IMG/VR virus record: IMGVR_UViG_2541047764_000010
DNA: 13,516 nucleotides
Reading direction: 5' to 3' (one strand)
Source of the DNA: a virus
Taxonomy: Duplodnaviria; Heunggongvirae; Uroviricota; Caudoviricetes
Below, piece by piece: positions 1 to 9,912 of the stretch. Made by a program: the position numbers and the translations under genes. The notes under the pieces were generated by a model. It made no database searches. It was not told where the DNA came from and was given only the letters and a program-made list of their open reading frames with translations. Position 1 is the first letter of the stretch. Each line of letters begins with the position of its first letter.

Positions 1-828
1 CTATGCTGTTTTGATATCTACGATAACCCAGTCTTTACCACGATCATCATTGTATCGGTCGGTCATTTTTCTGGATTTATGGCCTAACAACTTTTGCGTA
101 TCCAGACCCTGTTCCCGATATAACCGTTCTGACAGAGATCGCTGCTCATGAAATGTGGGCGCAGTTCCTTGCTCCCATTTTATGCCACATTTTTCCCTGG
201 CCTTTTTAAAAGCCGTTGTCAGAGTATTTGCAGAAACCTGGTCTCCTCTGTTTGCTTGAGAGGTAGTGTGACGGTAATGGACCAGATATTTACTAACAAC
301 AGCATCCCTGCACTGAGATATAACTTCACGAAGGGTAATATTCAGAGCATCGCATTTCAGGTTAAGCGGAATAGCAAGTTTTGAACCGGTTTTTTCCTGA
401 GTAATGTGCAACATGTCGTCCCAGATATCAGAGAATTTCAAATTGCAGATATCACCTAAACGTTGTCCAGTAACAAGAGCAAGTAGCATGCCGCATTTTA
501 AATAGGGCTGCCGTCTGCTTACGCTTTCAAATATTGCCTGCCATTCGGGCAGTGACAATCTTTGGCGGTTTACTCGATTTCGCGGTTGTTTTGTTGCCTG
601 CGCTGGGTTAAATCCTGGCGGAACATGTCCTGCGTGTTGTGCTTCTTTGAAGACGTCGATCAACACCATTCTCACGACTTGCGCCATCCTGTTATGACCT
701 TCAGCCTTTACAGCATCAATTATTTCGGCAATATCAAGTGCGGTAATATCCTTGAGGTGTTGCATTCCACAATGCTCACGGAAAAGACGAATGGGTTTGC
801 CTTTTTGCCGATAGGAGTTGGGTCTTAG
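1..828 (-). pseudogene. int: Tyrosine integrase, 3' (catalytic) portion; separated from its 5' portion by an IS5 insertion
   Basis: Minus-strand ORF ending at TAG (plus 1..3). The translation has the lambda-Int-like C-terminal pattern (TGQRLGD...KFSDI, HEQRSLSERLY, LLGHKS...Y) and joins in frame to the fragment at 2024..2342 once IS5 and one TTAG copy are removed. Confidence 0.88.
825..828. repeat. Left copy of the 4-bp TTAG target-site duplication flanking IS5
   Basis: TTAG immediately precedes the IS5 left end (GGAAGGTGCGAACAAG at 829) and is repeated at 2024..2027; IS5 is known to duplicate YTAR targets. Confidence 0.85.
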
Positions 829-2023
<1,195 letters not shown>

Positions 2024-2027
2024 TTAG
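2024..2027. repeat. Right copy of the 4-bp TTAG target-site duplication flanking IS5
   Basis: TTAG directly follows the IS5 right end at 2023. Confidence 0.85.
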
Positions 2028-2342
2028 TTCATTATGTTGCAGCCTGTCCTCCTGGATAGAAATATATTTATCAAGCCATTCTGTCACCGTAATTTCTGAG
2101 CGCCTGCCTTTCATTCTTTCCAGACGCTCATTGACGCTTAATATTTGTCGGGTACGTTGTTCAGCAATAATGGTATTTGCTTCAGTAGCAACTTGTTTTG
2201 CTTCATTCTCATCAGTTCCTAAGCTATGAAAACGACCGGATAGTGGATGTTTGTATTGCCAATATACCTTTCCGGTTCGCTTATCTAATTTGCAATATAA
2301 ATTGGGTATAGAGATTTTGTGAGATCGGGGTCTAGCAGCCAT
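2024..2342 (-). pseudogene. int: Tyrosine integrase, 5' (N-terminal arm-binding) portion upstream of the IS5 insertion
   Basis: The minus-strand ORF begins MAARPRSHKISIPNLYCKLDKRTGKVYWQYKHPLSGRFHSLGTDENEAK..., resembling the lambda Int N-terminus (RRSHERRDLPPNLY...). After ...RLQHNEL the frame runs into IS5 and stops 12 codons later. Restored int would be about 380 aa. Confidence 0.85.
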
Positions 2343-5929: not shown

Positions 5930-6062
5930 TTTTTGGGACTCCTGGCTGATTAAGTATGTCGATAAGGCGTTTCCATCCGTCACGTAATTTACGGGTGATT
6001 CGTTCAAGTAAAGATTCGGAAGGGCAGCCAGCAACAGGCCACCCTGCAATGGCATATTGCAT
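5898..6062 (-). CDS. cIII: cIII (protects cII from FtsH), 54 aa
   Basis: Hand translation of the minus strand from the ATG at 6062 gives [54 protein letters not shown], matching lambda cIII. An AAGGAG Shine-Dalgarno lies upstream. It overlaps kil by 32 nt in another frame and is absent from the ORF track. Confidence 0.9.
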   Translation of the reverse strand: MQYAIAGWPVAGCPSESLLERITRKLRDGWKRLIDILNQPGVPKNGSNTYGYPD

Positions 6063-6134
6063 GGTGTGCTCCTTATTTATACATAACGAAAAACGCCTCG
6101 AGTGAAGCGTTATTGGTATGCGGTAACGCCGCGC

Positions 6135-6763: not shown

Positions 6764-7345
6764 ATGAACAACTCATGGTGGCAGGAACTAATGCATTTTT
6801 TCCTGCAAGGAATGACACTTAAACAGTTGATTCATATGCTAATCATCCTGATCATATTGATTATTGTTATGCCTGTAAGCGTAAAAGAATGGATAAACCT
6901 GCATAATCCAGAAATCCTTCCTCATTACTGGATGTATTACATCCTGTTGTTTTGCGTTAGCTATGTGCTTAACGGCGTTGTTAATTCCGCTTATCACGCT
7001 GTGACTGTAAGAATTGAGATATTCGCTGCTCAGAAGCGCAAATCTAAAGAAGAGAAATACGTGCAAGATTTGTTTGATTCGTTAACTCTTGGAGAAAGAG
7101 CGTATTTGGCATTCGCTGTAGCCGCTAATAACCAGCTAAAGACAGAAAAGGGAAGCCCTGAAGCAATCTCATTGCTCGAAAAAGGGCTTCTTATTCGGGT
7201 ACCTTCTGCTACTGGATATCCTGAAATCGACCGTTTTGTTATCCCGGAACGCTATAGAAATGAGTGCTACATTAGGTTTGCTGGGAAGAAAGACAGTCTT
7301 ATGGATGAACTTATCGCTCAGGATAAGCATGGCAAAAACAAGTAA
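6764..7345 (+). CDS. sieB: Superinfection exclusion protein B (SieB)
   Basis: A 193-aa ORF on the opposite strand to the pL operon, between ea10 and N, with a hydrophobic N-terminal segment (LIHMLIILIILIIVMPV) and AT-rich composition. Size, position and sequence match lambda/P22 SieB as I recall. Confidence 0.75.
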   Translation: MNNSWWQELMHFFLQGMTLKQLIHMLIILIILIIVMPVSVKEWINLHNPEILPHYWMYYILLFCVSYVLNGVVNSAYHAVTVRIEIFAAQKRKSKEEKYVQDLFDSLTLGERAYLAFAVAANNQLKTEKGSPEAISLLEKGLLIRVPSATGYPEIDRFVIPERYRNECYIRFAGKKDSLMDELIAQDKHGKNK

Positions 7346-7361
7346 TTAGCAAATGAATTTA

Positions 7362-7670
7362 TCATCTCGCCGTCAGTTGTTTTGATTTCCGGTAGCCTGC
7401 CGCGTAAATAGCTACGTTTGGCAGGCAAACACTTCCACTGCATTCATCTACTTTCTTGCAGCGAAGGCTTCCGAGTGATATTGCTTTTTCAGAAAGGCTT
7501 AACCGCTTTCTCGGGTCTTCCTGAACAGGTTCCTCACTGTCTGTGCCGAAGATCGAATCGATGATGTTGCAGATGGAATCACGCTCGATGGCCAGCTTTC
7601 TGCGCCGCTCATGACGGCGAGTTTTGGCATTTCCTGCAAATGTTGATTTTCCGTACACGATTACCGTCAT
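7362..7670 (-). CDS. N: Antitermination protein N, P22-type (gene 24-like)
   Basis: From the ATG at 7670 (GAGGA Shine-Dalgarno 7 nt upstream) the product is MTVIVYGKSTFAGNAKTRRHERRRKLAIERD... (102 aa). The arginine-rich motif matches P22 gp24, and P22-type boxB sequences are present at both nut sites. Confidence 0.88.
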   Translation of the reverse strand: MTVIVYGKSTFAGNAKTRRHERRRKLAIERDSICNIIDSIFGTDSEEPVQEDPRKRLSLSEKAISLGSLRCKKVDECSGSVCLPNVAIYAAGYRKSKQLTAR

Positions 7671-7788
7671 GATGTTTTCCTCATGTGAAATGGCTTTGGT
7701 GGTGATGCGCCAGATGCTGATCTTCTGGTTGCTGTCGTTACTGCTGCAATTCACATCACCCCAAACCCATCTCGTTTGGTATCTGTTC

Positions 7789-7822
7789 GCGCTTTGTCAG
7801 CGCATCATCGAAGTTAAAGAGC
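7789..7822 (-). promoter_or_regulatory. nutL: nutL (boxA + P22-type boxB) on the minus strand
   Basis: The minus strand reads GCTCTTTAA (boxA-like, plus 7814..7822), an 8-10 nt spacer, then GCGCTGACAAAGCGC (plus 7789..7803), a 5-bp stem with GACAA pentaloop identical to P22 nutL boxB as recalled. Confidence 0.85.
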
Positions 7823-7859
7823 CTGCCAATCTGTTCCGTTTGGCTGCCAGCGTCCTGCT

Positions 7860-7915
7860 GATGGCGATTATAATGAACCAATAGTTCGATATTATCAAGA
7901 ACTATAAGTACGAAT
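7860..7915 (-). promoter_or_regulatory. Candidate pL promoter and OL operators
   Basis: A minus-strand TATAAT (plus 7867..7872) lies about 40 nt upstream of nutL; no good -35 hexamer is seen. Two 15-bp sites spaced 24 bp apart, TGAACCaatAGTTCG (7874..7888) and AGAACTataAGTACG (7898..7912), share a consensus with three sites in the cI-cro region. Confidence 0.45.
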
Positions 7916-8080: not shown

Positions 8081-8106
8081 AAAAGAAAAACCGGCGCTGA
8101 GGCCGG
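8081..8106 (-). terminator. Rho-independent terminator (minus strand) 6 nt downstream of the 299-aa gene; analogous in position to lambda timm
   Basis: On the minus strand, a CCGGC-cucagc-GCCGG hairpin (plus 8091..8106) is followed by UUUUUCUUUU (plus 8081..8090). Confidence 0.6.
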
Positions 8107-8112
8107 GTATAA

Positions 8113-9012
8113 TTATTTGATTATTTCTTTTATAAAGACTTCTTTCGGTTGGTATTTTTTATCTGATGATTTGAGCTGGTACGTTATTGTTATATCAGCA
8201 CGTACAGAAAATTTACCTGCAAAATCTGATGGGTTTACGTTGGGGCCAAGAACCATATTTACTCTTCGATCTATTAATCCAGGGATAACAGCAGCCCAAC
8301 CTTTCTCTGGATTGTCGAGGTCTAATGCACGGATTTCAACATCAACATCAAAATGATCCTGAGTATATGACTCTGGTGTGAAGACAACTTCAGTTGGGGC
8401 TTTTTTAATGGTTTCAGCGGGAATGGTCACTGTACCACCCCCTGTACCTATGACCATCGTAGATCCTTCGTCTGCCCTAGCTGGGGCAAGCGTCTTAATG
8501 GAACTTTTGGCAAGAGTCTTCTTATTGGTTACCGTGCTTTCTATGATTGCTTGAAGACGGTCAGGTGAAATATTAGCCTCACCGGCACCAATATTGATGA
8601 TTGTATTGTTATTTGCTTCAAAGTGGGAGGTGTTGCTTGGAGCCATAGCCTTAGTTGCTAGAACTAAGCCATATCCAACCAGACCAATAACAACAGCACC
8701 AACGAGAGCGTTTCTCATTTTCCCATTTCCGATCTTTGCATGAGCGCCAGCAAGAAACTTGTCCATTTCTTCTTGGCTACCAAAGAGGAGTTTAATAACA
8801 ATATCTTCATAAAGGCTTCCTGCTTCTAATCGCGCAACATGCACCGATATATCAAGGATATTAGCCCCTGTCAGTTCCTGCAAAACACCTTCTGATTGTT
8901 TTGCGATGGCCTCCCACCCTTGAAGGGAGGTAATCACATCTTTGATGCTTACAGGTTCTTTAGTTGAATAATATATGTTTTCGGTAAAGGTTAAAGATAA
9001 TTCTTGGGACAT
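8113..9012 (-). CDS. Unrecognised 299-aa single-pass membrane protein in the cI-distal immunity-region slot (rexAB-equivalent); candidate exclusion/defence protein
   Basis: A long ORF with a GAGGG Shine-Dalgarno 6 nt upstream of the ATG and a terminator after the stop. One strongly hydrophobic segment (NALVGAVVIGLVGYGLVLATKA, about residues 103-125) has K/R on its N-terminal side. The gene looks AT-rich relative to its flanks. No homology recognised. Confidence 0.7.
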   Translation of the reverse strand: MSQELSLTFTENIYYSTKEPVSIKDVITSLQGWEAIAKQSEGVLQELTGANILDISVHVARLEAGSLYEDIVIKLLFGSQEEMDKFLAGAHAKIGNGKMRNALVGAVVIGLVGYGLVLATKAMAPSNTSHFEANNNTIINIGAGEANISPDRLQAIIESTVTNKKTLAKSSIKTLAPARADEGSTMVIGTGGGTVTIPAETIKKAPTEVVFTPESYTQDHFDVDVEIRALDLDNPEKGWAAVIPGLIDRRVNMVLGPNVNPSDFAGKFSVRADITITYQLKSSDKKYQPKEVFIKEIIK

Positions 9013-9141
9013 CCGAGCCCTCGCTGTTTCTTTCGATTTGCTGTGTTAAGCTAATATTTTAATATCCATGTTTCTGTTTGCTTGCAGTGTGTTTCTCACC
9101 ACCATCCAAACGTACTGGTTACTAGCTATGTGATGATGAAG

Positions 9142-9849
9142 TCATGAACTTTTCAGCCATTCCCTGGCCTCGATGTCATCTAGGTGGCGAGATTGCTTCA
9201 GAATACCAGCTACATACTCCACCTTTGCTACTTGATGATAAGGCAACGTTATTGGCCTGTGGTCTTGGTTGATGCTTGTAAATTGGTATTCTCCGTCTCT
9301 GTCATAGCCAAGAACCTTGATCATGTTGTGCCCTTCAATGGTTCTGACAAACACCTCATCACCTGGGAATACTTTGGTGTTAGGCTCAATGAGTACATAT
9401 TCTCCTGATTTTATTCTGGGCCACATGCTGTCTCCTTTTACACGAAGACCAAAGGCATCTGGATCATCGCTATAAATCTTGAGCCACCCATCGCGCTCTT
9501 CGGTCATCTCGATGGCACCATCAACACCAAGAATTGCCTCACCAACCACGCGCACTAACCCTTTTTTTAATTTGCCAACAATTGAAAAAGTATCTTCATC
9601 ATTCGCTCCATTTAACGAAGTGCCGTGCTGAAGCCAAACAACATCAACGTTTAGAAATTTCGCAAGCGCATTCATTTTTTCCTGGCGTGGTAAAGACTCA
9701 GCATTAAACCATTTGCTAACGCCTTTGGACGAAAGAGAAAGGGCACGGGCTATGGCCATTCCCCTACCATGTTCATCAAGACCAGCTTCTTTACAGGCTT
9801 GCGCTAGCCGCTGGGCGAATTCTTTGCGCACTTTTTCATTCTGAACCAT
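9142..9849 (-). CDS. cI: cI-type prophage repressor (N-terminal HTH plus C-terminal S24 LexA-like autopeptidase domain)
   Basis: A 235-aa ORF divergent from cro. The C-terminal region has the S24 signature (GDSMWP Ser nucleophile context, conserved Lys in IKVLGYD). The N-terminal region has an HTH-like segment (GMAIARALSLSSKGVSKW). The sequence differs from lambda cI, so this is a different immunity type. Confidence 0.85.
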   Translation of the reverse strand: MVQNEKVRKEFAQRLAQACKEAGLDEHGRGMAIARALSLSSKGVSKWFNAESLPRQEKMNALAKFLNVDVVWLQHGTSLNGANDEDTFSIVGKLKKGLVRVVGEAILGVDGAIEMTEERDGWLKIYSDDPDAFGLRVKGDSMWPRIKSGEYVLIEPNTKVFPGDEVFVRTIEGHNMIKVLGYDRDGEYQFTSINQDHRPITLPYHQVAKVEYVAGILKQSRHLDDIEAREWLKSS

Positions 9850-9912
9850 GAGTACGATACTAAAGCACTTGCAAAAACTTTCAGTTCAACCATAATGCGT
9901 ACTGAAAGTACG
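9842..9912. promoter_or_regulatory. OR region: candidate pR promoter and three 15-bp operator sites
   Basis: Plus-strand TTGCAA (9869..9874), a 16-bp spacer and CATAAT (9891..9896) give a plausible pR. Candidate operators are TGAACCatgAGTACG (9842..9856, overlapping the cI start codon), AAAACTttcAGTTCA (9874..9888) and the perfect palindrome CGTACTgaaAGTACG (9898..9912, over the predicted pR start). Confidence 0.5.

Follow-up and report, generated by a model that had tools for sequence, protein, structure and literature searches.

The 13,516-nucleotide (nt) sequence of the Caudoviricetes record IMGVR_UViG_2541047764_000010 (IMG/VR), called here in its whole length the window, represents the early region of a lambdoid prophage. 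Between the cI repressor gene and a PL/OL-like site, i.e., in the slot of lambda rexAB, it harbors an open reading frame (ORF) of 299 amino acids (8113–9012, minus strand). The encoded protein belongs to a real, uncharacterized, and widely conserved family, phrog_4506, and is no artefact. Comparison of related prophages showed that the cI–OL interval is a genuine swap hotspot and that the target gene is a stand-alone accessory gene in it. The gene could encode a lysogen-expressed single-protein anti-phage exclusion or abortive-infection (Abi) factor, a reading that we rate at about even chances. A defence role is favored because the characterized occupants of the slot have it, the gene is an autonomous unit that moves between hotspots, and its product contains a conserved membrane-grade helix. 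An earlier sequence-only reading had proposed a membrane superinfection-exclusion or Abi protein on the basis of the position and a predicted topology with one transmembrane (TM) pass. The comparative data strengthen its positional argument, and defence stays the most likely role, whereas the topology and the idea of an own promoter were not upheld.

The slot, from the repressor toward N, consists of the following elements.

9142–9849, minus strand: cI-type repressor with a helix-turn-helix (HTH) domain and S24 peptidase, 5' of the target ORF in the same orientation
9013–9141, minus strand: spacer of 129 nt from the cI stop (9142) to the ORF, in which conservation along with the gene is limited to the ~50 nt nearest the ORF
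9018–9022, minus strand: Shine-Dalgarno GAGGG, 5 nt 5' of the ATG, kept in diverged cassettes
8113–9012, minus strand: target ORF, 299 amino acids, ATG start, TAA stop at 8113–8115; phrog_4506 member, RefSeq WP_000076840.1, UniProt A0A234Z8H0
8081–8106, minus strand: intrinsic terminator starting 6 nt past the stop, with a 5-bp GC stem (CCGGC/GCCGG, 8106–8091), a 6-nt loop and a T-run; left edge of the cassette
7870–7914, minus strand: region containing the PL-like promoter (promoter proper 7898–7870, TTGATA-17-CATTAT), slot boundary toward N
7362–7670: N (Pfam N_peptide, 5e-41)

The presence of cI, target ORF, terminator, PL-like promoter, and N in that order agrees with the earlier placement of the gene between cI and OL/pL, and an operator-like 9-mer, AAGTACGAA, located at 7906 in the PL-like region, recurs in the OR region at 9906. 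Other features described from the sequence alone were also found in place: the 299-residue ORF running from ATG to TAA, the strong Shine-Dalgarno, the gene's own terminator with GC stem and T-run, which diverged copies of the cassette have kept as well, and a gap to cI, given as 130 bp, that measures 129 nt. The GC content of the target gene is 41%, compared with 47% for the window.

Variability of the cI-to-OL segment, which had been put forward from general knowledge of lambdoid phages, was directly evident, as prophages with the same cI carry different cassettes there. A total of 11 sequenced coliphages, among them 1H12 and the 'Lambda_ev' phages, share the identical cI–gene–terminator segment, as do ~150 of 5426 complete Escherichia coli genomes (~3%); 427 E. 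coli genomes have this type of cI, and the exact target protein is found on at least 1000 contigs. In E. coli 13E0767, with a cI different by 1 residue and the same left flank, the slot holds a DUF6978-like gene and a DUF1828 gene. In Stx2a phages, with cI DNA 97% identical, it holds a DUF3024 gene and an NYN-domain gene, the DUF3024 member of which matches the PADLOC defence candidate PDC-S43 (7e-42). The flank common to the other cassettes ends at ~8109. In diverged copies, which lie behind different repressors, conservation is limited to the ORF, its terminator, and ~50 nt of leader. Morons are frequently found between the repressor gene and N (PMC7067206), and unknown ones are expected in this slot. 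Both alternative gene pairs (DUF3024 with NYN; DUF6978-like with DUF1828) are uncharacterized; the DUF1828 protein of 13E0767 weakly matches PDC-M24B. The loci of these alternative cassettes are L012 2622–3968 and L013 4113–5419. Two copies of the target gene are damaged: that of enteropathogenic E. coli E2348/69 (L011 3114–4013) contains the nonsense codon E19*, RefSeq annotating a shortened ORF, and that of EECO1006 (hit H46) is broken by IS1. Such occasional inactivation may reflect a cost of the gene.

The protein had been regarded as unassignable to any family. A family was found, as residues 1–299 align to positions 1–300 of the 300-position phrog_4506 profile (E = 1e-170, 567 bits); it stands as one of unknown function, since phrog_4506 has no annotated function and membership names the family but not its role. 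Among 1.84 billion representative proteins, a profile search identified 663 clusters at 50% identity with E ≤ 1e-3, of which 286 were at ≤ 1e-30. Nearly all of the 663 are ~300 amino acids long and align end to end, and the source names of all relatives read 'hypothetical'. Scans of the target protein and 137 family members against Pfam, NCBIfam, and PADLOC returned no family match; matches to DUF1206, DUF3082, and PycTM in the library scans were noise on the hydrophobic helix. A sequence-profile search of the PDB gave no match below E = 0.27, and Foldseek with the first AlphaFold model gave nothing below 1e-3 in the PDB and only uncharacterized proteins in BFVD. Recurrent weak Foldseek matches to M16 peptidases had template-modelling (TM) scores < 0.2 and were judged meaningless. 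Nothing on the family was retrieved from the literature when it was queried by topic or by accession, PHROG id, or UniProt id. In the transposable cyanophage Lsp-JY19 of Leptolyngbya, the gene for a 332-residue protein (L007 3281–4279) precedes that for lysozyme; the similarity of this protein to the target is confined to the last ~80 residues (33% identity to residues 220–298), and for this reason, the C-terminal β region may be a separable module.

Family members are hosted by Enterobacterales (clinical ones included), Pseudomonas, Acinetobacter, Burkholderiales, Nitrosomonas, Accumulibacter, and Methylocaldum. The occurrence in clinical Enterobacterales, Pseudomonas, and Acinetobacter, along with the lysogen-type position, the moron features, and the lack of defence homology, would also suit a lysogenic-conversion factor unrelated to defence, of which lambda bor and lom are examples; it might be a membrane-associated protein altering host envelope physiology, stress tolerance, or virulence. 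We consider this unlikely, as the family is common in environmental Beta- and Gammaproteobacteria too (Nitrosomonas, Accumulibacter, Methylocaldum), which argues against a host-niche-specific trait. Among repressor-adjacent genes, that for 933W Stk is an exclusion or Abi gene. The characterized occupants of this position are mainly of that kind, e.g., rexAB (PMC7067206) and BstA (PMC8585504), which also weighs against a conversion factor.

Analysis of the genomic context of the relatives revealed a cI-type repressor, directly upstream and in the same orientation, as the sole recurrent neighbor. Homologues recur behind cI in Escherichia, Pseudomonas, and Acinetobacter phages down to 24–26% identity: those of Pseudomonas phages D14C and U9 (24% identity) have a repressor directly upstream, and those in Acinetobacter baumannii prophages (26% identity) lie 59 nt downstream of an HTH_3+S24 gene. 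Across 21 genome loci, with three upstream ORFs considered for each, an S24 protein was found in 7 and an HTH_3 protein in 9. For the IMG/VR loci, a repressor lies upstream in 11/11 near-identical ones that retain upstream sequence and in ~18/29 diverged ones, with one more confirmed by Pfam. All-against-all BLAST of the neighbors detected no other conserved partner gene, and the downstream genes have nothing in common. Since no partner gene is conserved, the protein probably works alone.

Several loci differ from this arrangement. In a Mu-like prophage of an Accumulibacter metagenome-assembled genome (L002 6001–6900), the homologue is immediately upstream of protease and capsid genes and co-oriented with them; no portal or terminase was seen nearby. 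Homologues are also placed 3' of the primase in integrative islands. The Serratia fonticola homologue (L008 6001–6909) sits 3' of the primase in an AlpA/AntA island, and the three large ORFs that come next (847, 598, and >800 amino acids) have no match in Pfam or PADLOC. In the IMG/VR loci L054 and L062, the homologue is a solitary gene surrounded by phage genes of the opposite strand. Two diverged loci (L028 5121–5909; L074 4123–4911) have a 263-residue Hypoth_Ymh protein (PF09509) directly upstream and no repressor there; one upstream ORF in the neighbor set matched PADLOC Aga_HEPN and is presumably this Hypoth_Ymh protein. A few neighbors are known or candidate defence genes, i.e., DUF499/DUF3780, PD-Lambda-3_B, and the HEPN-like Ymh protein. 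Overall, enrichment at moron or defence hotspots was observed, comprising the slot with its PDC-S43 alternative, the recurrence behind repressors, the Mu-like prophage, and the islands.

These contexts bear on two further explanations. The adjacency to S24-type repressors of unrelated sequence (26% to 100% identity) could indicate a role in the phage's own lysis–lysogeny control or maintenance, the protein modulating repressor cleavage or induction or serving as an addiction toxin that stabilizes the prophage, and the inactivated copies (E19* in E2348/69, IS1 in EECO1006) could reflect the cost of such a gene. This is rather unlikely in view of the loci that have no nearby repressor (Mu-like late region, primase islands, opposite-strand solo), the prophages with the same cI that do without the gene, and the absence of a conserved antitoxin-like partner. 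The Accumulibacter arrangement, in which the homologue immediately precedes co-oriented protease and capsid genes, and the cyanophage protein sharing the last ~80 residues and encoded upstream of a lysozyme gene would be compatible with a role in the lytic cycle or the virion, the protein acting, e.g., in lysis like a holin or as an accessory of head morphogenesis. Such a role appears very improbable given that most loci place the gene on the presumed repressor transcript, outside the PL and PR operons, that phages with the same cI can dispense with it, and that it has its own terminator.

With regard to expression, the gap to cI had been suggested to hold a promoter of the gene's own. A consensus scan of the 129-nt spacer identified no promoter-like and no terminator-like site, the RNA fold of the spacer was not unusual (z = 0.36), and only ~50 nt of upstream sequence travels with the gene. 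Because neither a promoter nor a terminator was found between cI and the target gene, the latter is most likely co-transcribed with cI by read-through from PRM and PRE and would hence be made in the lysogen like lambda rexAB. Taken on sequence evidence, its behavior appears to be that of an autonomous accessory gene preferentially located on the lysogenic transcript.

The protein segments that matter for its fold and topology are given below.

8962–8982, minus strand (codons 11–17): N-terminal β-strand, ladder partner, coevolving with 184–190
8644–8712, minus strand (codons 101–123): conserved, uniformly hydrophobic, Gly-rich helix NALVGAVVIGLVGYGLVLATKAM, Kyte-Doolittle value 2.24, helical in both AlphaFold models
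8578–8616, minus strand (codons 133–145): ANNN(T/V)IINIGAGE, the strongest motif of the family alignment, in the helix after the hydrophobic one
8443–8463, minus strand (codons 184–190): strand tying both halves together, coevolving with 11–17

The hydrophobic segment at residues 101–122 with Lys/Arg on its N-terminal side, noted earlier in the single sequence, is a property of the family: a single Kyte-Doolittle peak > 1.6 near residue 103 was present in 171/191 homologues, and more Lys/Arg was found on the N-side of the helix in 163/191. Further near-invariant residues are G65-S66, F77, P206, R228, D233, W239, and R250. The Gly/Thr-rich stretch pointed out earlier exists but is the most variable, indel-rich, and least conserved part of the family alignment. 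Interpretation of 'INIGAG' as an amyloid/RHIM-like or dinucleotide-binding motif was rejected, the motif being present in a single copy and predicted to be helical with high confidence. The second AlphaFold model, built with a 137-sequence alignment, represents a single rigid body with a predicted local distance difference test (pLDDT) of 94.2 and a predicted template-modelling score (pTM) of 0.86. The order of secondary structures is equal in both models: β 5–15, α 23–48, β 52–63, β 67–77, α 80–94, the hydrophobic helix 101–123, one non-helical residue, a helix at 125–146, short helices up to 179, and a five-stranded β region at 215–297. The protein is predicted to be one compact α/β body in which the N-terminal third touches the C-terminal half.

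Coevolution was evaluated on an alignment of 256 sequences (effective number 188) by mean-field direct coupling analysis (DCA) and a pseudo-likelihood model over 43,660 pairs; the pseudo-likelihood run was not converged and agreed with mean-field DCA at r = 0.87. A mean-field DCA on an earlier quick alignment was discarded, as it was dominated by gap artefacts. Both methods recovered the β-hairpins 52–63/67–77, 239–243/247–255, 269–281/286–297, and 215–227/269–281, which served as positive controls. An antiparallel ladder formed by 13–186, 11–190, and 17–184 was within the top 40 of the 43,660 pairs by both methods, with a segment score of 6.2 (99th percentile of the null, 5.7). Weaker coevolution linked the N-domain with residues 156–180 and 258–267. 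Contacts of the hydrophobic helix (116–205; 112–135; 107/111 with 36/40/44) were marginal, at about the 95th percentile of the null, since a second large protein search added only ~20 sequences. Whether it is intrachain or intersubunit, the ladder places both halves in the same compartment, and as there is no signal peptide, both should be cytoplasmic.

These results contradict the topology proposed from the single sequence, i.e., a cytoplasmic N-domain, one TM pass, and a periplasmic C-domain. A bitopic inner-membrane protein of this kind might block DNA entry of superinfecting phages in the manner of classical superinfection exclusion, and its hydrophobic segment and positive-inside bias were indeed found, with one conserved hydrophobic peak and a bias favoring N-in in 163/191 homologues. 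The position behind cI would suit it too. Lactococcal Sie2009 is a membrane-anchored exclusion protein encoded beside a repressor. P22 SieA is likewise known as a membrane-anchored exclusion protein beside a repressor (PMC10883804). The domains were, however, not found apart on opposite sides of the membrane: a pTM of 0.86 for the whole chain would be hard to obtain with two domains joined only by a membrane-spanning helix, the 11–17/184–190 ladder and the N-domain contacts to 156–180 put both halves in one compartment, and the residues that follow the helix show no Lys/Arg depletion. A bitopic protein is quite improbable on these grounds. The hydrophobic helix may instead be buried in the fold, form a hairpin anchor with helix 125–146, or switch between both states; the high polarity of helix 125–146 would be unusual in a membrane span, except as the lining of an oligomeric pore.

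The favored reading of an anti-phage factor would then take the following form. A self-contained moron cassette (~50 nt leader, ORF, and terminator) would have been inserted in the repressor–OL/PL hotspot of temperate phages; the protein would be made in the lysogen from the cI transcript and would protect the lysogen from other phages, acting at the inner membrane through its hydrophobic helix. Action at the membrane by a cytoplasmic or membrane-associated protein is our best guess. The helix could be permanently anchored in the membrane. Alternatively, and preferably by our inference, it could be sheathed at rest and freed into the membrane upon sensing of infection, leading to lost membrane integrity and abortive infection. 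A more specific proposal is a new class of single-protein Abi effector, a cytoplasmic α/β protein hiding a TM-grade helix that would be freed on infection together with the Asn-rich ANNNxIINIGAGE helix, oligomerize, and breach the inner membrane; we regard this proposal as doubtful. If true, it would constitute a bacterial, non-helical counterpart to the 'sheathed helix' switch of colicin and Bax, located beside repressor genes across Proteobacteria.

Comparison with known systems showed both similarities and differences. Lambda RexA/RexB share the slot between cI and OL, the presumed lysogen expression from the cI transcript, the terminator before PL, and plausible action at the inner membrane. 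The position is that of rexAB as observed, and co-transcription would follow from the promoter- and terminator-free gap. In contrast, neither sequence nor profile comparison (Pfam, NCBIfam, PADLOC) revealed similarity to RexA/RexB, the target is a single ORF and not a two-gene operon, and it has one hydrophobic helix in a compact α/β fold in place of a multi-pass RexB channel and a RexA sensor. BstA has a KilA-N-type domain and no hydrophobic helix, and no similarity to it or to its DNA-binding N-terminal domain was found in Pfam or PADLOC scans. BstA of the Salmonella prophage BTP1 is, like the target, encoded by a single ~300-residue gene directly downstream of the prophage repressor and is a stand-alone Abi protein in diverse Gram-negative prophages, but it localizes at phage DNA replication sites (PMC8585504). 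P22 SieA, SieB, T4 Imm, and lactococcal Sie2009 resemble the proposed factor as prophage-expressed, single-protein, membrane-associated superinfection blocks. The target matches neither Pfam SieB (PF14163) nor Imm_superinfect (PF14373), and its compact predicted fold, with both halves on one side, is unlike a presenter of a periplasmic domain. The apparent packing of a TM-grade helix inside a soluble fold is shared with colicin pore domains, Bcl-2/Bax, and Cry toxin domain I, in which the sheathed hydrophobic helix is an architecture for conditional membrane insertion.

Several points weigh against a lysogen-expressed defence protein of this type. The family has no homology to defence families, no PADLOC v2 model covers it, and it does not appear in the DefensePredictor supplements searched. 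In non-prophage loci, only a few neighbors are known defence genes. The consensus scan leaves room for a weak promoter in the gap. The idea of a sheathed helix is drawn from a monomer model and from helix contacts at about the 95th percentile of the null, and a 22-residue Gly-rich hydrophobic helix with N-side Lys/Arg (163/191) also fits a true transmembrane anchor.

The repressor-adjacent slot has repeatedly been a source of exclusion and Abi systems (rexAB, BstA, 933W Stk), and the target gene ranks among the more common of its unexplained occupants. Its relatives in Acinetobacter baumannii and Pseudomonas aeruginosa prophages bear on the host range of phages in therapy. The family offers a confident predicted fold without a solved relative and an unusual placement of a TM-grade helix. 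If it is a defence protein, a stand-alone effector, possibly with a new route to the membrane, would be added; if it is not, it represents a widespread lysogeny-linked function so far unstudied.

The gene order across the window is int (split by IS5), xis, exo, bet, gam, kil, cIII, a sieB homologue, N, the target ORF, cI, cro, cII, O, P, ren, and ninB. The int gene is interrupted by an IS5-type element (transposase ORF 861–1877, plus strand) into a C-terminal part (1–843, minus strand) and an N-terminal part (1986–2342, minus strand), and owing to this split, the prophage is probably unable to excise normally. The lambda cIII thermoregulator RNA element of Rfam (RF01804) was matched at 6017–6075 (minus strand; 88.5 bits, E = 6e-21), 5' of the cIII-like ORF. 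The SieB homologue (6764–7345, plus strand; Pfam SieB PF14163, 3e-25; 40% GC) lies on the strand opposite to the neighboring PL-operon genes and is likely a second exclusion gene of this prophage. Between N and the target gene, RefSeq annotates a hypothetical ORF of 71 amino acids (7669–7884, plus strand) that coincides in part with the presumed PL/OL region and is possibly spurious.

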